Below, in pieces: positions 3,882 through 20,000 of a stretch of 20,000 bases of DNA; within the stretch, counting starts at the first letter, position 1, and each line of letters opens with the position of its first letter. The stretch spans positions 1,177,817 through 1,197,816 of the forward strand of contig CP120456.1 of NCBI GenBank assembly GCA_034226945.1, in the 5' to 3' direction. Below the pieces are notes generated by a model. The model did no database searches, was not told the origin of the DNA, and was given only the letters and a program-made list of their open reading frames with translations. The translations under genes were made by a program, and so were the position numbers. The DNA is from Picochlorum sp. SENEW3 (Eukaryota).

Positions 3882-5460
3882 GAAACAAAGACAATACTTT
3901 TTTCATTTTTTCTTGTCTCATGTCTTTTCATATACTTCTTATTGTACCTCTCTCTACCTCATATCTTGTCTGTGAGTCTATCTCCAGGTTCCTATCTTCT
4001 TCTTGTGTGTGTGTCTTTGTGTTTCGTCCTGTTATTATTGGCTGCTTGCTCATATCGATTGTTGTGCATGTTAGTATGATTATTACTATTTCTCTAACTA
4101 GTAACTGGTATGAGATAGTATCCTGTTTTGATTGCTTTGCTTTGTTGGTGTGTTCTCTTGTGTTGTAGTAGCAGTAGCAGAGCTTGTGGTGTGTGTTGTC
4201 AGAGTTGTTGTTTCAGGTGGTGTGCGACGCTTTGATGAGTGCTGTTTTTTTTTACTATACAACACCCTTTTTATTTTGTGTATTGGTTTGGTTGGTATAT
4301 TTTTGGTGGAGGTCCCAGTCAAGTCAAGGGGGGGTGATGGGAAGATCGCCATTCTTCTTGTTCCGAGAAGCTCCCTCTTCTTCTTCAGACAGTCCACCAG
4401 ACCTGTTTGTTGTTTTGCCCTGGTTGTGGGAGTTTTCTTTACTGATGGGTGTTTATTATTCACACAGATATAACGCAACAAGCACTTAAAAATTTTTTTC
4501 CCTTCAATAGAAAGATTATAAATTCTACATGGTATCACTGTGGCACGAATGCGCTAAAGCTCTCTGCTGTGAGAGAAACGACTCCGTGCTTTTCTCGAGG
4601 TAGAGGAACGAAAACGGCCTGTAGGCCCGACTCAAATACCAACGTGACCGAGGAGAAGCGTCGGCCTGGAATCGTTTGTAGATTTTCCGACACAGCCCGT
4701 CCGACAAAGTCCTGGATAGAAGGCCACGCGCGACGGGCAGGAATCCTAGTTCTTATTTAAATTGGTACTCTTCTTCTTACTTACTTACTTAATATTGTGT
4801 CCTTCTGTTGTTGTTGTTGTGAAAAAGGACAGAGATTCTTTTCATTCATGCATAGCATAGCATAGCATAGTATAGATTGTTGTTGTGTCATTATGATTAT
4901 TATGAGATTTTTATCTTTTGATTTTGGTTTTGCTTTGCTTTGCTTTTGTGTTGGTTGCTGTTGTTGTTGTCTTCTCTTGTTGTTGTAGTAGTAGTAGTAG
5001 TAGGAGGAGCAGTAGTAGTAGCAGAGCTTGTGGTATGCCGTGTCTTTTGTTGTTGTCGTTGTTGTTGTTGTTGTATATATAGTATAGGTGGTTATTATAC
5101 TACTTATTATTCTTCTTGATATTGTATTGTATATTCTCGTTCTTTTGGTGGTGTTTTTGGATGTTTTTTTAGTTGGTGTGTTTTTTTGGTTAGGGTATTT
5201 TGGTCTTGTTGGTGGTGTTTTTTCTTGGCTTTATTTTTGATTTTTTGGATATTTTCTTATTTTTGGGTAGTTTGTATATTATTTAATTTAGAAATCGTGT
5301 TTATTTTTCTGTGAATGCGGTGGACGTGGGGTGACTATCTACTGGGGTTCTGCCCGGTGGCTCCCCTCGAGAAATTAGGCGACTGTTGCGTCCGGTCCAA
5401 GCATCCCTCTGACCGGTCACCAGGACTGGCTAAAAAGGGATAAGGGATAATTGGGATTAG
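2367..5460 (+). mobile_element. Unclassified non-coding ~3 kb repeat element, copy 1, preceded by a 5'-truncated end box (2367-2471)
   Basis: Colinear homology with 5461-8788 and ~15930-19905. Shared landmarks: AATCACGCGCTGC head, CATTCCCGTGG, AATAAAAAAGG(A/G)CGACCATG, GGTCCCAGTCAAGTC...GGGAAGATCGCCATTCTT, (TTG)n tracts, and the end box finishing GGGATAAGGGATAATTGGGATTAG. Strand is nominal. Confidence 0.7.
4460..4749 (+). mobile_element. Non-autonomous Helitron (~290 bp) nested in copy 1
   Basis: Absent at the homologous site of copy 3 (GTTTATTA^TTCTTATTT, ~19329) and of copy 2. Starts (T)TC and ends CTAG followed by T. GCCCGTC (4695-4701) and GACGGGC (4732-4738) form a stem ending 11 nt from the terminus. 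No target-site duplication. Confidence 0.8.
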
Positions 5461-8400
5461 AAATCACGCGCTGCTGGTCGACTGAGCTCTGTTTCGCCGG
5501 GTCCGTGGCGCTGTTGAGTCTTTCATGTATCCACAGAAACCGTGCGAACTGCCAGATCGGGCATTTGAGGGGCGATGACCAACCTTGGTCACCGCATGTC
5601 CCAATTGAGTCACGAATCACGCGCTGCTGGTCGACTGAGCTCTGTTTCGCCGGGTCCGTGGCGCTGTCGAGTCTTTCAAGTATCCACAAAAACCGTGCGA
5701 ACTGCCAGATCGGGCATTTGAGGGGCGATGACCAACCTTGGTCACCGCATGTCCCAATTGAGTCACGAATCACGCGCTGCTGGTCGACTGAGCTCTGTTT
5801 CGCCGGGTCCGTGGCGCTGTTGAGTCTTTCATGTATCCACAGAAACCGTGCGAACTGCCAGATCGGGCATTTGGGTGGCGATGACCAACCTTGGTCACCG
5901 CATGTCCCAATTGAGTCACGAATCACGCGCTCCTGGTCGACTGAGCTCTGTTTCGCCGGGTCCGTGGCGCTGTTGAGTCTTTCATGTATCCACAGAAATC
6001 GTGCGAACTGCCAGATCGGGCATTTGAGGGGCGATGACCAACCTTGGTCACCGCATGTTCGAATCGAGTCAGGAATCACGCGCTGCTGGTCGACTGAGCT
6101 CTGTTTCGCCGGGTCCGTGGCGCTGTTGAGTCTTTCAAGTATCCACAGAAACCGTGCGAACTGCCAGATCGGGCATTTGGGGGGCGATGACCAACCTTGG
6201 TCACCGCATGTCCCAATTGAGTCACGAATCACGCGCTGCTGGTCGACTGAGCTCTGTTTCGCCGGGTCCGTGGCGCTGTTGAGTCTTTCATGTATCCACA
6301 GAAACCGTGCGAACTGCCAGATCGGGCATTTGAGGGGCGATGACCAACCTAGAGTGTTGTCATGACATTCCCGTGGGGCGGTTGTTGTTGGAACCCTGTT
6401 GTGCTCCGTGGTGGTCAATCGACGGCTCTATCGACTGATATATATTTTTAAAGCAATAATGATGCTCCTTCATGTCCATGGAGGGCGACTCCAGGCCTGT
6501 GCTGGTCCCAACCGTCGCGACGCGAACGGAATCGACGACTGTCGGTTGGCGTGGAAACTGACGCGGTCACCACGGAGAGACCCTCAATGCTGTTTTAATT
6601 ATCCATTTATTCAATATTAATCACTGTGAGGCACCGTTTCTTCGGCAGTGCGTGGCACCCCCTGGGCCAACGCGATGTCATGGCTCTGCAAGGTGTGGTG
6701 TCAACTTGGTCTGGAACAGTCGAAAGATAGCCGCAATATGTTGGGTATGCACAACAACCATAGAAAGGGACACCTGATACTGCTGACCTATTCGGGCTGG
6801 TTCTTACACACGGCTTTTCCTTCTTGTGTTGTGAGGACATGCTTCTTTGTTCGTTTTCTCAACCCTTCGGTCCGACAAAGCCCCAGACCGTTGGCATGCG
6901 ACCCGTAGTAGTAGGAGAGGAGTAGAGACGGGTCTCTGGTCGTGCTCTGGCGAATGTCCGTAAACAAACACAATAAAAAAGTTGGACCAAGTTGAACCCC
7001 GGTCTCCTCGGACGTGGTGTTCGTCCGTCAATGAGGACAATAAAAAAGGGCGACCATGGGACCGCTCGGCCACACTCGTCGTGCTTTTTGGTGGCATGTT
7101 TTTCATTCTTCTTCCCATCCCATCACACAAGAGGTTTGACCGAGGATATATCGTGATTTTTTTTGGTATTCACAGCTCTCTCCATCGAAGACATATTTTG
7201 ATGGGAGTGGATGTGGAGCACACACACACAGCCAGCTGGTCGAGGAGGAGAGCTGTGACTCGCCTGCTTTCTTTGCAGCAACATAAACACGACGACATCT
7301 CCCTTATTCAAAGAAGCGTCGCAGTTGTATCCTACTATTCTAATAGCAACTCCTCATGAAGTCTACGTAAGACAATGTCATACTTTCCTCCAGCATCAGT
7401 GCAAGGTTCCTAGTGCTTGCCACAGCTTGCTTGTTGTTGTTGTTGTGAAGCAGACGATTTGTTTCCATTTCATTCTTATTTCATGATGTCTTTTCCTTAT
7501 TTATTCATTTCACAGGTATTGTTATAACTCTTTCTCTAGAGAATCTCACATGTTGTCTGTGAAGGGTATCTCCAGGTTGTTCTTCTTCTTGTGAGCATGA
7601 GACTTGTGTGCTTTGTTGTGTCCTGTTATTATTGCTCGTGTGGATTGTTGTGCATGTTTCTATCATTATTATTACTACTACTATTATGAGATATTTACTT
7701 TCTCCTTTTGATTGCTTTCCTTCTTTGTTGGTGTGTTGTCTCGTGGTGTAGCAGCAGCAGCAGTAGTAACAGTAACAGTAGTAACAGTAATAGTAGTAGT
7801 AGTAGTGGTGGTGGTGTGTATGCTGGATGGTTGTTGATTTATTGTATTATTATTGTTGTTGTGTAGGGTGGCTGCTTTCTACACCCTTTTGCTTGGTTTG
7901 GTTGGTATTTTTTGGGTGGTGGTCCCAGTCAAGTCCAGGGGTGGTGATGGGAAGATCGCCATTCTTCTTGTTCCGAGATGCTCCCTCTTTCTTCCGAGGG
8001 CACCATCATCATCACCTGTTTGTTCCGCGTGGGTGTGCGACGTTTTTTTCAATGATGGGTGTTTATTATTATTATTATTATTGGTATTCTTCTTACTTCC
8101 TTACTTACTTACTTAATATTGTGTCCTTCTGTTGTTGTTGTTGTTGCTGTTGTGAAGAAGAAGACAGAGATTCTTTTCATTCATGCATAGCATAGCATAG
8201 CATAGATTGTTGTTGTGTCATTATGATTATTATGAGATTTGTATCTTTTGATTTTGGTTTTGCTTTGCTAATTTTTGTGTTGGTTGCTGTTGTTGTTGTC
8301 TTCTCTTGTTGTTGTAGTAGTAGGAGGAGGAGGAGGAGCAGTAGTAGTAGCAGAGCTTGTGGTGTGCCGTGTCTTTTGTTGTTGTTGTTGTTGTTGTTGT

Positions 8401-8788
8401 ATATATATATAGTAGGTGCTTATTATACTACTTATTCTTCTTCTTGATACTGTATTGTATATTCTCGTTCTTTTGGTGGTGTTTTTGGATGTTTTTTTGG
8501 TTGGTGTGTTTTTTTGGTTAGGGTATTTTGGTCTTGTTGGTGGTGTTTTTTCTTGGCTGTATTTTTGATTTTTTGGATATTTTCTTATTTTTGGGTAGTT
8601 TGTTATTTTTTTTATTTGGAAATCGTGTTTATTTTTTGTTTGTGTGGTGGGAAGTGGGGTGAATATCTACTGGGGTTCTGCCCGGTGGCTCCCCTCGAGA
8701 AATTAGGCGACTGTTGCGTCCGGTCCAAGCATCCCTCTGACCGGTCACCAGGACTGGCTAAAAAGGGATAAGGGATAATTGGGATTAG
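5461..8788 (+). mobile_element. Unclassified ~3.3 kb repeat element, copy 2, head-to-tail with copy 1
   Basis: Same landmark order as copy 1. The end box 8667-8788 looks identical to 5339-5460 and abuts Mini-III coding sequence at 8789. Confidence 0.7.
5462..6349. repeat. 153-bp tandem array, about 5.8 near-identical copies
   Basis: AATCACGCGCT at 5462, 5615, 5768, 5921, 6074 and 6227; 51-aa periodicity in ORFs 5451..6365(+) and 5417..6418(-). A single diverged unit sits at ~2473-2610. Confidence 0.97.
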
Positions 8789-9578: not shown

Positions 9579-11889
9579 ATGGCCGGACCTTCTTCCGCCC
9601 CTTTGGAGGTGGAGAGTGTAGACTCGCCATGGCAGGAGGGCGTGAGTTTGCTCGACAAGTAAGATGTGCATGTCATTCGTCTGCAGGCTTCGGGATACAG
9701 TAGACCAATAGGATACGAATGTATTTGCAGGCACCAGGTGACAGGGCGGAGCAGGCAATGGCAACTGGGAGTCGTGGGGACTGGTATGTGTTCTGTTGGC
9801 CTTTACTTCTTGTCCCCTCGTATTTCGTGTCACACATAGAATGGTATCACGCAGTGCTGGCTTTTATTGGAATCGCTGGATCCTTTTACATCGGGAGGAG
9901 CAGTTCACCTTGCTACAGCAGTGGGCAAGGGAGTGGCAAGGACCAGGTGAGTCCAGAGGGACGCATTCTCGGCAGCTACGACATGCTTCACGATTTTCGT
10001 GGGAGGCCCAGGTTTATCGAATCAGAAAGAGCCGCTGTAGCATCAGATCATGGTAGGTGTGCCGATCAAGGCGTTGAGGTGATGAGAGGCGGAGGGAATG
10101 CAGCAGATGCTGCAGTGGTGACGGCCCTGTGTCAGGGTTTATACAATCCGATGGCCAGCGGCATTGGTGGAGGGCATATTATGGTGGTGAGGTACGTTTT
10201 CATATATTGTCTTTTGTCTTCAAGGCGTATCAATGACAGACGCGCAAGATGCATACTTGCAGACTGCCAAACAGCACTGCACAAGTGATTGATGCTCGAG
10301 AGATTGCCCCCCAAAAAGCAAGGAAAAATATGTTCAAGGGCAAGCCAGACCTTTCGTTGACGGGTGGAAAGGCGATTGCGGTGCCTTTAGAGCTTCAAGG
10401 ACTATACTTGCTGCACTCTATGCATGGTGTAAAGCCTTGGAAAGAGCTCCTGCAGCCAGCCATTAAACTTGCCAGGGACGGTTTTCCAGCCCATCCGTAT
10501 CTGGTATCCTCACTCCAGAACGCTAATTTCAAGGTATGCATTGAACCGTAATAATTTTGAAGAGATGAGTTGTCTAATCTCACCGTACATTCGTTGTGCA
10601 GGCATCCGAAGATGATCTCAAGAGGACATTTTTTGTGTTTGACAAGAAACTGAATTCCTACAGGATACCAAAAATAAACGAGACTTGCTGCAGGCGAGGA
10701 ATGCTTGCCCAGGTTCTGGAAGATGGTACGGTTGATTGATTCGCTGAATTTACGCTGCTGATTTGAGGATGAACCATGGATGAATCATGCTGTGCAGTTG
10801 CCAACCATGGTCCTGAGGCCCTCTACAAGGGGAAGTACACCGACTCTTTAGTGAACGATATTCGGCAACATGGTGGTATCATTACAAAAAAGGATTTTGA
10901 GAAAGCTGATGCGACGCTGAGGGAGCCTGTTCGGGGGAAGGCCTTTGGTTTGGAGTTTCTCATGCCTCCACCTCCAAGCAGCAGTGCAGCAGTTTTGTTG
11001 GCACTTCGGATTTTGGAGGGCTACAGCCTTCCACTTGCAGGTATATCGACTCTCGGATTTCATAGAATAATCGAATCCATGAAACACGCTTTTGCAATAC
11101 GCATGTCTCTCGGTGATCCAGGGAGCGGCAGCTCGTGGCCAACCAGTGAGCACATTATGGAGGATGTGCTGGATCGTGCTTTTGCGGAGGAACTGCGGTC
11201 TGTGATTCAGGATAATAATGTTCGTAATGTGACAGAGTATGGTGGGAAATGGAATGTGGTCGAACGGGGAATGTCGCCAGACGACCATGGAACCTCCCAT
11301 ATGAGCATTGTGGACCAATCTGGCATGGCTGTTTCCCTCACCTCCACGATCAACACTGGCTTTGGCAGTAAAGTCATCTCCGCATCCACTGGAATCTTAT
11401 TGAATAATCAGATGGATGATTTTTCGACACCAAGCCAGAGCAACGTGTATGGCATTCCCCCATCAGAGTCAAATTTCATCTATCCAGGGAAGAAACCTCT
11501 CAGCAGTATGAGCCCCATGATTTTGCTCCAAGACAATCAACCTCGCCTTATCATTGGGTCTCTGGGGACCTCGAATCATTTCTGCCGTCTTGCAGACAAT
11601 TTTGAGAACCGTGGCCTACGGGGAGGACTTGTTTGATGCAGTGAGGCAGCCCCGACTGCACCACCAGTTGGTGCCAGACTCGCTGCAAGCAGAGCGTTGG
11701 GGTTCGGGTGGCATCTCGTTTGAATACAGTGACGATCTCCTACAGGCTCTCGAGAGAAGAGGACATAGATGGGATGCAACAAATTGGGGGGCTGTCGTTC
11801 AGGCTATCAAAATAGACAGAGGACCCTCTAGTAGGGTCCTGCATGCGGCCTCGGATCCCAGGAAAGATGGCTCCCCATCTGGATTTTAA
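9579..11889 (+). CDS. GGT: Gamma-glutamyltranspeptidase (glutathione hydrolase); exons 9579-9658, 9731-9783, 9855-10191, 10263-10533, 10602-10725, 10798-11889; frameshift near 11556-11567
   Basis: Motifs GGNAADAAV, SGIGGG, IDAREIAP, HGTSHMSIVD (nucleophile Thr), TSTINTGFGS, GILLNNQMDDFS, PGKKPLSSMSP, PRLHHQL, AASDPRKDG. Five in-phase GT-AG introns of 68-72 nt. N-terminal hydrophobic anchor. The first two exons are less certain. Confidence 0.93.
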
Positions 11890-11955
11890 TATCTATACCG
11901 TATAATCTTTTTGTACATCATACACATGTAGCAATAACAGGGATATCCTCCTTTT

Positions 11956-12400
11956 CTAGTTTCTGAGGTCTTTTGCTTTCTCCTCACCATTGGCTTGCCA
12001 CAGGAAAAACTTGGCAAGATTGATGGCTGCATTCACATCTCAGAGTTGCCAGAAAGCACGCTCACATCCATTGTTCGTACAACGGCGTACTTTCCAGCGC
12101 TTGTGAAGCCCGACTGCTGGGGGCATTTTTGGCATGACAGCCGCTGCAGGATTGGCTACTTTGGAATTCATCAATCTCGACAAAACAACACCTCTGCCGA
12201 AGCAGGTCCTTCAGGGCTCGAAGGCATATCCTCTCTGTACCGTGTTTTCCTGAATTAATCAAGGCGTTCCCAAACACAACTACAGTCCTGCTCTGAGTCT
12301 CCCTGTTCTTTGTCACACAGGTCCTTTCAACCATGGAGTCCAGCATTCGTTGCGTCTTTGTGTAAACAGAGAACCTTTGCCTTCGGAAACAGTTCTGGTA
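11956..12400 (-). pseudogene. Fanzor/TnpB-family RNA-guided nuclease, C-terminal fragment (RuvC-II, zinc finger, RuvC-III), disrupted
   Basis: Two frames joined at the T5 run 12126-12130: YQNCFRRQRFSVYTKTQRMLDSMVERTC...RTVVVFGNALINSG...LRALKDLLRQRCCFVEIDEFQSSQSCSGCHAK / MPPAVGLHKRWKVRRCTNNGCERAFWQL*DVNAAINLAKFFLWQANGEEKAKDLRN*. The order DE-x2-SS-x2-CxxC...C-x4-C...(R)DVNAAIN is characteristic of TnpB/Fanzor. Confidence 0.85.
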
Positions 12401-13349
12401 CTTGGGAGTGTGTGTCGATCAGTCTAGAGTGTCCAATTGCATTGAACATGGGATTATACTTGCAAAAACGTCCTGCTGACACCGCGAGGAATGAAAATCC
12501 CCATGAAAAACACAGGTGGTCGTCGTCAGTTCCGTTCACATAAGTTGGGACGAAAAGGAGGGGCCTGCAGAGCTGTCACCCATGGGCAGGAAGGGCCAGT
12601 AATATGATTCATATTCATACTAAAATAATTATACCACCCATGTATGGCTACGTCCAGAGAGTGTTTTTCTGCTGTAATTGAACACAATAAAAAATTGTGA
12701 CCATGCCCATTTGGCCATTTGCCATTTGCACATTTGTCGCGTGGTCGTCTTTTTTTATTGTCTTTTTACAGACTAATATCACGACGAGCGTTGTTGACAT
12801 CGTGTCTCCGGTCGAATGGATGCCAGGAGCGGACACAGTTCAGTGAGACCCACGAGGTTGAACAAGCTAGCGTGCTCTTGGCGCGACACACTCGCTGCCA
12901 CCCGCCTGCTTGAGCTTGGTTTTGTTTCTTTCTGCCGTCTCATTGATTTGATTCAAAAGTATTGCAATATCAATCAACGATTCGTGCAGAAACCCATCAG
13001 GAGAAACAGAGGTCCTGGAAGTCGTGGCTCTGTCCACTGTAATTGCCAAGGCATTCCCGTGGAACAGCTACGGGCCCCTCTCTGTGAATGTGTCCATACG
13101 TGGGTCGTATGATGGACTTGTTATGAGTCTATGAATCATATTAATGGCCCTTCCTGCCCATGGGTGACAGCTCTGCAGGCCCCCTCCTCGTCCCAACCAA
13201 TGTGACGCGAACGGAATTGACGACGACCAGCTGTGTTTTGAATGGGGACTTGCATTCGTTGCGGTGTCGGCAGGACGTTTTTGCAAGTATAATAACCCAT
13301 ATTCAACAATTGTACACCAGACTGATAAATACACATTCCCAAGTACCCA
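12397..13349. repeat. Long imperfect inverted repeat; arms ~12397-12613 and ~13131-13349
   Basis: GGGGCCTGCAGAGCTGTCACCCATGGGCAGGAAGGGCCA in the left arm is the exact reverse complement of the right arm's TGGCCCTTCCTGCCCATGGGTGACAGCTCTGCAGGCCCC; TATACTTGCAAAAACGTCCTGC is also mirrored. Confidence 0.9.
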
Positions 13350-14330
13350 AGTGTTTTTCTGCTGTAATTGAACACAATAAAAAATCGTGACCTTTCAATT
13401 TTAACGACAACTTTAACGACAATTTTAACGATTTCACCCCAGTGTTTTTGTTGTAATTGAACACAATAAAAAATTGTGACAAAAAATTGGGCTCGAACCC
13501 TGGACCACCGTCGCTCTTTTTTATTGTTCCCATTTACGGAGAGAAACGAGTAGAGTTGAGTCAAAGTGACTTATTCTACTACCATCCAACGGGTCGACGG
13601 ACCGGACCATTGTGCTATCAAAAATTTCCACGCTGGTGTCAGAACTGTCCACTTTTGTCGCGTGGTTACCTTTTTTATTGTGTCTTTTACGGACAGAGAC
13701 GACGAGCGTGCCAGGCGTGATATCTCCGGTCGAATGGATGCCAGGAGCGGACACTGTCAGTGAGACCAACACACAGACTCTCCTCTACTCCGCTCCCATC
13801 AAGTACTCCTCCTCCTCTTGAAGAGTAATAAACACCACCATTAACATGTATTAAATGTTACATGGTTTATGTGTCCACAGTTTTGCGTGGCGACGACAGA
13901 TGCTCGCAATTAGCAGCTTTGGCTTTCGTTGGCATTCTTGGCAACACTCACAACCATTCGCTTTCTTGAGGTTTGGAGTAGTCTGCCGTCTCCTTAATTT
14001 GATTCAGCGATATTGTGAAATAACAATCAACGAGTGATTCGTACAGAAACCCACCCGGAGGAGAACTTCGTCTTGGCTCTCCAGACCTGTCAATGGCATT
14101 CCCGTGAACCTGTTGGGGACCCCTTTCTCACTCTCTCTCTCACTCTGTGGACGTGGTGGTCATACGGTGGTGATAGATTTGGTTCATTGTGAATATATAC
14201 AAATAATCAGCGTGGCCCTTCGTGACAACTGCAGGCTTCCTTGTCTCAACAGCCTTGACGCGAACGGAATTCGTGTTGATAGGACATTCAACTCATTGAC
14301 AAACGGGAATACCCCTGTATCATTTCACTA
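12660..14330 (+). repeat. Diverged direct duplication (~12660-13349 vs ~13350-14330) related to the 3 kb element
   Basis: AGTGTTTTTCTGCTGTAATTGAACACAATAAAAAAT at ~12660 and ~13351; TCTCCGGTCGAATGGATGCCAGGAGCGGACAC at ~12805 and ~13723; TCTGCCGTCTC...GGCATTCCCGTG...GACGCGAACGGAAT in both. Confidence 0.8.
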
Positions 14331-18167: not shown

Positions 18168-20000
18168 AAACCACACGCTTTATCCGCTCGGCCACACTCA
18201 GCGTGCTTTTTGTGGCTTTTTTCATCTCCCATCACAAGGGACGTTTGACCGGCAGTGTAGTTCTCTCCTCCATCAAACACCTCTTCTGATGGGAGCCTGG
18301 ATACGGAGCACACACAGGTGGAGGAAGAGAGAGCTGTGGAACAGTCTTTAAACACGACGAGATCTTCCCCAAAGAAGCGTCGCAATTGTATATATATAAT
18401 TATATCCTACTATCCTATCCTCATTGCAACTCATGAAGTCTAAGTAATTAAGTAAGCGTTCCATGCATGATGATGATACTGATAGTTGCTTCAGCATTGT
18501 AACTGCTGCAACAGTACTCTAGTGCTTGCCACAGCTTGGTTCTTGTTGTTGTTGTTGTTGTGAAGAAGACGATTTCCTTTCATTCTTTTTCTCCTTTCTC
18601 TTATAAATTTGTTCTTTTCATATACTTCTTATTATACCTCTCTCTGGTCTTCTTGTCGCTGTTGTTCTTTGTGGAGACAGACTTCATGGCACCACCTTGT
18701 TGTGAAGACGACGATTTGTTTTCATTTCATTCTTGTTCCATGATGTCTTTTCCTTATATATTCATTTCACAGTTATTATTCTAACTCTTATATAATAAAC
18801 TCTTTCTCTATCTCACATGTTGTCTGTGAGTCGAGCTCCAGGTTGTTCTTCTTGTGTGCTTTGTTGTGTTCTGTTATTATTGGTTGCTATTATTGGTCAT
18901 GTCGATTGTTGTTGTGCATGTTATAATCATTATTACATTATTACTACTATTATGAGATATTTACTTTCTTCTTCTTTTGATTGCTTTGCTTCTTTGTTTG
19001 TTGGTGTGTTGTCTCGTGTTATAGCAGCAGCAGCAGCAGTAGTAGTAGTGGTGGTGGTGTGAATGCTGGATGGTTGTTGATTTATTGTATTGTTGTTGTT
19101 GTTGTTGTGTGGGGTGGCTGTTTTAGACACCCTTGCTTGGTTTGGTTGGTATTTTTTGGTGGTGGTCCCAGTCAAGTCCTTTAAGAAGTCAAGGGGTGGT
19201 GATGATGACGGGAAGATCGCCATTCTTGTTGTTCCGAGATGCTCCCTCTTCTTCCAACATGTGGCAGCAGACCATTGTTTGTTTTGCACTGGGTGTGCGA
19301 CGCTTTTTTTTAATGATGGGTGTTTATTATTCTTATTTATATTGGTACTCTTCTTCTTACTTACTTCATATTGTGTCCTTCTGTTGTTGTTGTTGCTGTT
19401 GTGAAGAAGAAGACAGAGATTCTTTTCATTCATGCATAGCATAGTATAGATTGTTGTTGTGTCATTATGATTATTATGAGATTTGTATCTTTTGATTTTG
19501 GTTTTGCTTTGCTTTGCTTTTGTGTTGGTTGCTGTTGTTGTTGTCTTCTCTTGTTGTTGTAGTAGTAGTAGTAGGAGGAGGAGCAGTAGTAGTAGCAGAG
19601 CTTGTGGTATGCCGTGTCTTTTGTTGTTGTCGTTGTTGTTGTATATATAGTATAGGTGGTTATTATACTACTACTTATTCTTCTTGATATTGTATTGTAT
19701 ATTCTCGTCCTTTTGGTGGTGTTTTTGGATGTTTTTTTGGTTGGTGTGTTTTTTTTGTTAGGGTATTTTGGTCTTGTTGGTGGTGTTTTTTCTTGGCTTT
19801 ATTTTTGATTTTTTGGATATTTTCTTATTTTTGGGTAGTTTGTATATTATTTAATTTAGAAATCGTGTTTATTTTTGTTTGTGTGGTGGGAAGTAGGGTG
19901 ACTATGTTGTTATATACCCTCATTACCCTCCTGCCAAGGAACGACGGTATGCACAGGGTATAGGGTATAGGGAGCAATACGTAACTGAACGAAGTACTGA

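Follow-up and report, generated by a model that had tools for sequence, protein, structure and literature searches.

The locus described here lies in a 20,000-nucleotide (nt) stretch of contig CP120456.1 of Picochlorum sp. SENEW3, referred to below as the window. A gamma-glutamyltranspeptidase (GGT) gene on the plus strand (10076..11889) converges with the remains of a gene for a Fanzor, a eukaryotic nuclease of the TnpB/Cas12 type. These remains, a Fanzor1-derived pseudogene fragment on the minus strand (11959..12398), were delimited by tblastn, hmmsearch and hhalign and correspond to positions 589-735 of the approximately 760 positions of a family profile, i.e. about the C-terminal fifth of a protein of 950-1000 amino acids (aa). 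The GGT stop codon (11887-11889) is 66 bp from the stop codon of the relic, and the opposite end of the relic abuts a block of repeats.

Fanzor1, the counterpart of TnpB in eukaryotes and giant viruses, is a DNA endonuclease carried by transposons. It is an omega-RNA-guided RuvC nuclease with a catalytic triad made up of the RuvC-I Asp, a relocated Glu and the RuvC-III Asp, as described in passages of PMC10530073 and PMC10432273. According to a passage of PMC10530073, all Fanzors have Gly or Pro in place of the canonical RuvC-II Glu, a loss that is offset by a Glu about 45 residues further on. Passages of the same paper report 3,655 unique Fanzors in 22,497 assemblies, with as many as 122 copies in one genome and an average length of 620 aa, and state that Fanzor genes may contain introns. 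A passage of PMC10432273 describes the CCCC zinc finger of SpuFz1 (NUC/TNB domain).

The relic contains about 147 codons on the minus strand, from 12397 to 11959, split over two reading frames. Frame A (P0001) is the open frame 12062-12418, in which QNCFRRQRF, VVVFGNA, IDEF and CSGCHAK follow one another in this order. Frame B (P0002; 11956-12210) contains WKVRRCTNNGCERAFWQL, a TGA at 12040-12042 and then DVNAAINL (DVNAAINLAKFFLW); it is open except for this TGA and ends with TAG at 11956-11958. A first-pass annotation of the window, made from the sequence without database searches, had joined two minus-strand frames into a peptide of about 147 aa. A scripted read-through with X at both breaks gave 147 residues, and all of the motif strings quoted in that annotation are present in the sequence.

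Relatives of the fragment and family assignment

We used frame A as the query of a phmmer search of 1.84 billion representative proteins. The search yielded 29 matches at E<=1e-3. Eight of these, four full-length proteins (P0006-P0009) among them, reached E<=1e-10, and two reached E<=1e-30; a relative of 963 aa was matched at E 1.3e-20. Near-identical fragments were found in P0003 (94 aa; 97% identical, 91 of 94 residues) and P0004 (171 aa; 91-94% identical), while P0005 (214 aa) was 57% identical to the query. Residues 6/8-97/102 of the query matched the full-length proteins P0006-P0009 (948-1003 aa) near their C-termini with 44-53% identity. Twenty-five of the 29 matches contained PF07282 at E<=0.01, 14 of the 29 above the gathering cut-off, and three contained no family. 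A word-indexed search with P0001 for longer proteins returned none, and a search for proteins of similar length returned only P0003 and P0004. When P0004 was the query we obtained P0038 (413 aa, partial), the closest relative with a complete core from DPG to RuvC-III. P0038 was 59% identical to frame A and identical to frame B at 42 of 54 residues (78%; 12043..12126 plus the RuvC-III piece).

Twenty longer relatives, including three members of the P0007 cluster, were assembled into alignment A1, from which P0003-P0005, P0011, P0015, P0017, P0020, P0024-P0026, P0030 and P0031 were left out. Invariant columns of A1 are D685 (DPG, RuvC-I), G828, E862, S866, C869, C872, C895, C900, R907, D908 and N914. 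A hidden Markov model (HMM) of A1 was compared with the 795 six-frame stop-to-stop open reading frames (ORFs) of at least 15 aa in the window. Only three of these scored, and they were collinear: 12065-12418 (HMM positions 589-678, E 1.2e-39), 12043-12210 (689-709, E 4.5e-6) and 11959-12039 (711-735, E 3.5e-7). The next best ORF had an E-value of 0.84. In hhalign comparisons with the A1 profile, frame A aligned with columns 584-676 (probability 99.8%, E 8e-30) and frame B with the next columns, 685-731 (98.3%, E 1.6e-14), collinear with frame A. Frame B was absent from every search query; thus, its comparisons with the profile and with P0038 are not circular.

The A1 profile was also compared with the sequences of the PDB, where it matched ten distinct sequences at E<=1. 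The top three were all Fanzor1 proteins, namely SpuFz1 (8gkh, 5.6e-30), PpFz1 (9cf0, 9e-23) and GtFz1 (9cer, 1.3e-19), and the match to GtFz1 was a single stretch across nearly the whole profile. Weaker matches were to Cas12f (0.0032), a chain named 'Transposase' (9j09, 0.014), LaTranC (0.17-0.19) and ISDra2 TnpB (0.46), and no Fanzor2 chain was matched at E<=1. An AlphaFold2 model of P0038 was computed from a 28-row alignment (A4) and had a mean pLDDT (predicted local distance difference test score) of 77.5. In a Foldseek search of the PDB with this model, Fanzor1 occupied ranks 1-7 (E 8.4e-10 to 1.6e-6), followed by Cas12 variants, with Fanzor2 at rank 17 and TnpB (ISDra2) at rank 23. Judged by the profile of its relatives and by the predicted structure of P0038, the fragment is closer to Fanzor1 than to Fanzor2, TnpB or Cas12. 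From these comparisons we conclude that it belongs to Fanzor1 by descent.

The Fanzor1-like identity proposed in the first-pass annotation is therefore borne out by the match of the relatives' profile to the solved Fanzor1 proteins and by the alignment of both frames. That annotation had also named what would speak against it, i.e. the lack of a TnpB or Fanzor match, or a better match to an unrelated zinc-finger family. The profile and the P0038 model both gave Fanzor1 as the best match, and no competing zinc-finger family emerged, as Pfam gave PF07282 alone for the fragment.

Catalytic and zinc-finger residues

The part of frame A that aligned with the relatives' profile by hhalign, from QNCF to CSGCHAK, occupies 12128..12397 on the minus strand. 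Within it, the Gly of VVVFG (codon 12269-12271) stands at the canonical RuvC-II Glu position and aligns with invariant G828, and the alternative catalytic Glu of IDEF (codon 12167-12169) aligns with invariant E862. Codon positions put the Glu 34 residues after the Gly, as the first-pass annotation had it, and in the relatives G828 and E862 are equally far apart, as compared with the spacing of about 45 residues that a passage of PMC10530073 gives as typical of Fanzors. The rearranged RuvC-II described there, to which the annotation had also appealed, thus coincides with positions that never vary among the relatives. Frame A also encodes the first two Cys residues of the zinc finger (codons 12146-12148 and 12137-12139, aligned with C869 and C872).

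The remainder is in frame B and consists of two minus-strand pieces that correspond to the second and third HMM matches. The first piece (12043..12126), which ends in GLHKRWKVRRCTNNGCERAFWQL, contains the second Cys pair of the zinc finger (codons 12079-12081 and 12064-12066, aligned with C895 and C900). All four Cys codons of the CCCC zinc finger have therefore been kept, two in each reading frame. The RuvC-III piece (11959..12039), which begins with DVNAAINLAKFFLW and is followed by the TAG, has the RuvC-III Asp as codon 12037-12039, aligns with invariant D908 and N914 and retains the NAAIN residues. Of the RDxNAAxN motif the Asp and NAAIN are present, and the Arg position is a TGA that comes after one extra codon. 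From G828 onward the window matches every invariant column of A1 except R907, which corresponds to this TGA.

Fanzor1 structures are available for SpuFz1 of Spizellomyces punctatus (8GKH, 9CEU-9CEZ), PpFz1 of Parasitella parasitica (9CF0) and GtFz1 of Guillardia theta (9CER). Like Fanzor1, the relic has Gly in place of Glu in RuvC-II, a Glu relocated to a position directly ahead of the zinc finger, a finger of the CCCC type, the Asp and NAAIN residues of the RDxNAAxN motif and a eukaryotic setting. Unlike Fanzor1, it consists of the last fifth only, with a frameshift and a stop, and it has no RuvC-I, WED or REC. Its intact relatives (948-1003 aa) are long in comparison with the 620-aa mean given in PMC10530073 and are only about 14-16% identical to the solved Fanzor1 proteins. 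Among the closest relatives, P0003 and P0004 are themselves fragments, and P0038 and P0005-P0009 are metagenomic proteins without names. The RuvC fold, the zinc finger and PF07282 are shared with prokaryotic TnpB (IS200/IS605; ISDra2, 8H1J/8BF8), Cas12f and Fanzor2 (ApmFz2, 9B0L). In contrast to prokaryotic TnpB, for which the canonical Glu and an IS200/IS605-type setting with TnpA and hairpin ends would be expected, the window has Gly at the canonical RuvC-II Glu position, and the neighbour of the relic is a spliced eukaryotic gene.

Interruptions, 5' break and surrounding sequence

Frame A passes to frame B on the minus strand in or at an A5 run (12126..12130), across which P0038 continues in one frame. 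Frame B resumes at the ATG at 12124-12126, after a one-base frame change inside the zinc finger. The second interruption is the in-frame TGA (12040..12042, minus strand), which alignment to the relatives places at the Arg of RDxNAAxN in RuvC-III. An extra Leu codon (12043-12045) precedes the TGA, and the window reads FWQ-L-TGA-D where the relatives read FWQ-R-D. The first-pass annotation had correctly put the TGA at this Arg and had proposed a simple change of CGA to TGA. As the window has one codon more than the relatives, this change is not the sole reading: the lesion is either a point change accompanied by the gain of 3 nt or one 3-nt insertion inside the Arg codon.

Contigs from other sequencing runs were compared with the window over these positions. 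Those of runs X7 and X17 span 12047-12355 with 0 gaps, the A5 run included. An X7 contig (11660-12074) retains the TGA, as does an X19 contig (11903-12072) with 0 differences from the window. P0003, which comes from another source, has the same out-of-frame tail within its 91 of 94 identical residues. Since independent contigs from three runs (X7, X17 and X19) and P0003 carry the lesions, we conclude that they are not assembly errors. X19 has no contig cover past 12072 and X17 has none at approximately 11946-12029; such holes in cover prove nothing. The same locus with its lesions was also present in contigs labelled as several different organisms.

When nine relatives were compared with the window by tblastn, every match at E<1e-3 fell within 11962-12403. 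The homology spans 12397/12398 down to approximately 11962-11965, which is nearly the natural C-terminus of P0038. Neither tblastn nor the HMM search of the 795 ORFs detected homology to profile positions 1-588 anywhere in the 20-kb window, and the 7.6 kb that separate the relic from the window end on its upstream side have no Fanzor homology. As only three collinear C-terminal pieces score, about four-fifths of the protein is absent, i.e. the RuvC-I Asp, WED, REC and the N-terminal region, in agreement with the earlier statement that RuvC-I and the N-terminal lobe are missing.

The 5' truncation is marked by the terminus (..CCCAAGTACC) of a repeat, designated repeat R, the first copy of which (12397..12656, minus strand) abuts the fragment. 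A second copy (13085..13356, plus strand) is 85% identical to the first and inverted relative to it. The two copies agree up to ..CCCAAGTACC (..TACC) and then split, one leading into the fragment and the other into another short repeat. Loose contig ends in several runs suggest that repeat R is dispersed in the genome. Contigs of X17 and X7 follow the window at about 90% identity from 12327 (or 12318) as far as 12398, beyond which they diverge from it, and one loose contig end, when read as its reverse complement, encodes the Fanzor residues found ahead of QNCF in P0004 and P0038. P0004 itself extends 94 residues farther toward the N-terminus than the fragment. Because the contig ends continue the Fanzor ORF, paralogues with a longer ORF exist in related genomes. 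Summed contig depth over 11988-12113, 12240-12407 and repeat R exceeded that over GGT, which fits several copies and is not a measure of copy number.

Repeat R lies inside an approximately 1-kb direct repeat that is degenerate (12729-13218 and 13650-14271), and the block also includes three copies of a 43-bp unit (12660-12702, 13350-13392 and 13439-13481). No Pfam family was found in the ORFs of this repeat block (12397-14271). The repeats border the relic at its 5' break only and are unrelated to Fanzor. Within the window, Rfam identified 0 families and a tRNA search 0 genes.

The neighbouring GGT gene matches PF01019, positions 2-512 of which are distributed among four pieces of ORF (E 1.6e-10 to 1.8e-76). 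Its three introns (10192-10262, 10534-10601 and 10726-10797) are 68-72 nt long and have GT-AG borders, from which it follows that the host is a eukaryote. The GGT reading frame shifts at 11558-11563, where the window is two bases short compared to the X7 and X17 contigs and has two substitutions. The X7/X17 version of this segment gives a continuous GGT frame with a GASGG-type motif that is broken in the window. The break is more likely an assembly error than a frameshifted allele.

Several other repeats are present in the window. Two satellite-like tandem arrays occupy 1005-2371 (8.0 copies of 170 bp, 90% matches) and 5462-6350 (5.8 copies of 153 bp, 96%). The second array can be read as a repetitive ORF on either strand, and its Pfam matches are noise below the threshold. 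Minus-strand ORFs at 4781-5230, 8268-8666 and 19430-19798 are three copies of a low-complexity dispersed repeat; they share a long, near-identical translated stretch (SQEKTPPTRPKYPN..) and are flanked by trinucleotide-repeat tracts. A further minus-strand ORF (2-517, 172 aa) runs off the window start and contains Cys residues (..EFPWL..CEWC..). It has no Pfam family at E<=0.01, and we take it to resemble a TTF-type or hAT-related zinc finger.

Decay of the gene and alternative explanations

The comparisons above demonstrate the homology, the family, the boundaries and the lesions, and also that independent data contain these lesions. The best explanation for these results, to which we assign a probability of about 0.93, is that the stretch is a non-functional, neutral remnant of a Fanzor1 gene. 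Decayed Fanzor copies are common, and this one is an unremarkable example from a family that is well known and widespread. A large Fanzor1 copy (approximately 950-1000 aa), which presumably arrived by transposition, once stood tail-to-tail with GGT, and its C-terminal 140-150 codons are left. These codons encode the strand of RuvC-II that bears the Fanzor-type Gly and, after it, the Glu in its relocated position, the CCCC zinc finger and RuvC-III. Three changes disable the gene: loss of the 5' four-fifths, with the break exactly at the terminus of an unrelated dispersed repeat; the one-base frame change in the A5 run, inside the zinc finger; and the in-frame TGA with its extra codon at the Arg of RDxNAA. 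The truncation was probably caused by the repeat or by a rearrangement at the end of the repeat. The intact ancestors would have been omega-RNA-guided RuvC nucleases, as is the case for Fanzor1. Measured against a functional Fanzor1, the fragment has an interrupted ORF and lacks the RuvC-I Asp (DPG), WED, REC and the N-terminal lobes. Because one of the three catalytic residues (the RuvC-I Asp) and the RNA- and DNA-binding lobes are missing, and because there are two interruptions, the relic is inactive; it neither binds a guide nor cuts DNA, and it therefore does nothing as a nuclease. A literature search on degraded Fanzor1 copies found nothing relevant, and no passage on pseudogenes was found in PMC10711439.

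Several observations weigh against this explanation. Direct library matches of the fragment are weak: its Pfam match to PF07282 (Cas12f1-like TNB) had an E-value of 0.0067 and a score of 17 bits against a cut-off of 26.3 bits, NCBIfam gave nothing relevant (secA at E 0.1 is noise), and phmmer of P0001 against PDB sequences returned only plasma kallikrein at E 0.5-1.2, which is also noise. The family assignment therefore depends on unnamed metagenomic relatives. One phmmer match, P0011, is a bacterial Big_2 repeat protein of 2893 aa; it was spurious and unrelated and was excluded. The hhalign test of frame A is partly circular, as the sequences of A1 had been gathered by searching with frame A. 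The assembly of the window is imperfect near the relic, as indicated by the 2-nt deficit in GGT at 11558-11563. Finally, the window yielded neither transposon ends nor a target-site duplication, a transposase or an omega RNA, and it is for this reason that we can only infer that the copy was part of a transposon. In a Fanzor1 system the omega RNA would be encoded at or past the 3' end of the ORF, as far as the right end of the transposon; here the stop codons of the relic and of GGT are 66 bp apart.

Four other explanations were considered, and the one that would make the relic an exon of a live, intron-containing Fanzor gene, with the frameshift and the stop as assembly errors, is very unlikely. 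Such an exon would be in keeping with the introns that Fanzor genes may carry (in the passage of PMC10530073 cited above), with an AG dinucleotide (12401-12402) just before the first homologous codons and with the apparent 2-nt assembly error in GGT. Moreover, six contigs of run X1 are without one base at 12126. However, X1 has many scattered one-base omissions, and we therefore consider this omission to be read noise rather than an intact allele. The lesions are kept in three data sets (X7 and X17 with 0 gaps, X19 with 0 differences) as well as in P0003, Fanzor homology does not resume in the 7.6 kb upstream, and the break coincides with the end of a repeat that is found elsewhere too. A chance resemblance, or membership in another CxxC zinc-finger family, is favoured only by the sub-cut-off Pfam match and is refuted by E-values of 1e-14 to 1e-39, by three collinear pieces in two frames and by conservation of all of the catalytic and zinc-binding columns.

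The two remaining explanations are compatible with a dead gene. It is improbable, though less so than either of the foregoing, that the fragment came from an integrated giant virus (Nucleocytoviricota) rather than from a cellular transposon, which would concern its origin only, as the piece would still be dead. The Atlas neighbours of P0006 belong to clusters with PF07282 and PF26935 (DUF8286), and their labelled members are mostly Nucleocytoviricota, with some eukaryotes; these taxa rest on few labelled members. However, the window has no recognisable viral gene, the neighbouring ORFs are without a Pfam family, and the relic is flanked by a spliced host gene and dispersed repeats. A scan of IMG/VR viral contigs with alignment A2 gave 36 pattern matches, none of which was confirmed as a relative. 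Among metagenome contigs, a scan with A2 gave 135 pattern stretches, none of them confirmed, and an exact 24-nt pattern of the relic had 0 matches.

There is an even smaller chance that the dead nuclease was taken over by the host, as the 3' untranslated region (UTR) of the GGT mRNA or as an antisense or regulatory transcript. Two contigs of X19, an oligo-dT metatranscriptome, run from the coding end of GGT into the relic (11738-11916 and 11903-12072); neither has base substitutions, and the first has 16 gap positions. They are a weak hint that the tail of the relic is part of a transcript, possibly the GGT 3' UTR. However, contigs reveal neither strand nor transcription, and RNA libraries can contain DNA. 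That contigs labelled with several organisms contain the locus together with its lesions would also fit a retained function, but the relic has no sign of higher conservation than its flanks. The minus-strand RNA fold of 11800-12060 was slightly more stable than its shuffles (z -1.85), which is not significant as 9 of 200 shuffles were as stable, and it had no Rfam match. We therefore retain a neutral, non-functional Fanzor1 remnant as the explanation of the locus.

One more dead copy leaves knowledge of the family unchanged, and the main use of the result is a correct annotation; it also validates the motif-based call that was made from sequence alone. The long-bodied subfamily (948-1003 aa) may be new, and the supplementary tables of PMC10530073 or PMC10432273 may already list it. 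A bolder proposal is that the relic is the footprint of an undescribed and exceptionally long Fanzor1 subfamily (approximately 950-1000 aa) that protists or algae have in common with giant viruses and that survives in this lineage. We consider this unlikely; in its favour, the ORFs of the X7/X17 paralogues continue past the break and the core of P0038 is complete. This eukaryote, together with close relatives in several sequencing studies, once hosted an element of the large-bodied Fanzor1 subfamily, which is so far known from unnamed metagenomic proteins only, and the relic is a pointer for mining intact nucleases. If the subfamily is indeed alive, a complete copy and its guide RNA would together amount to a new programmable nuclease.

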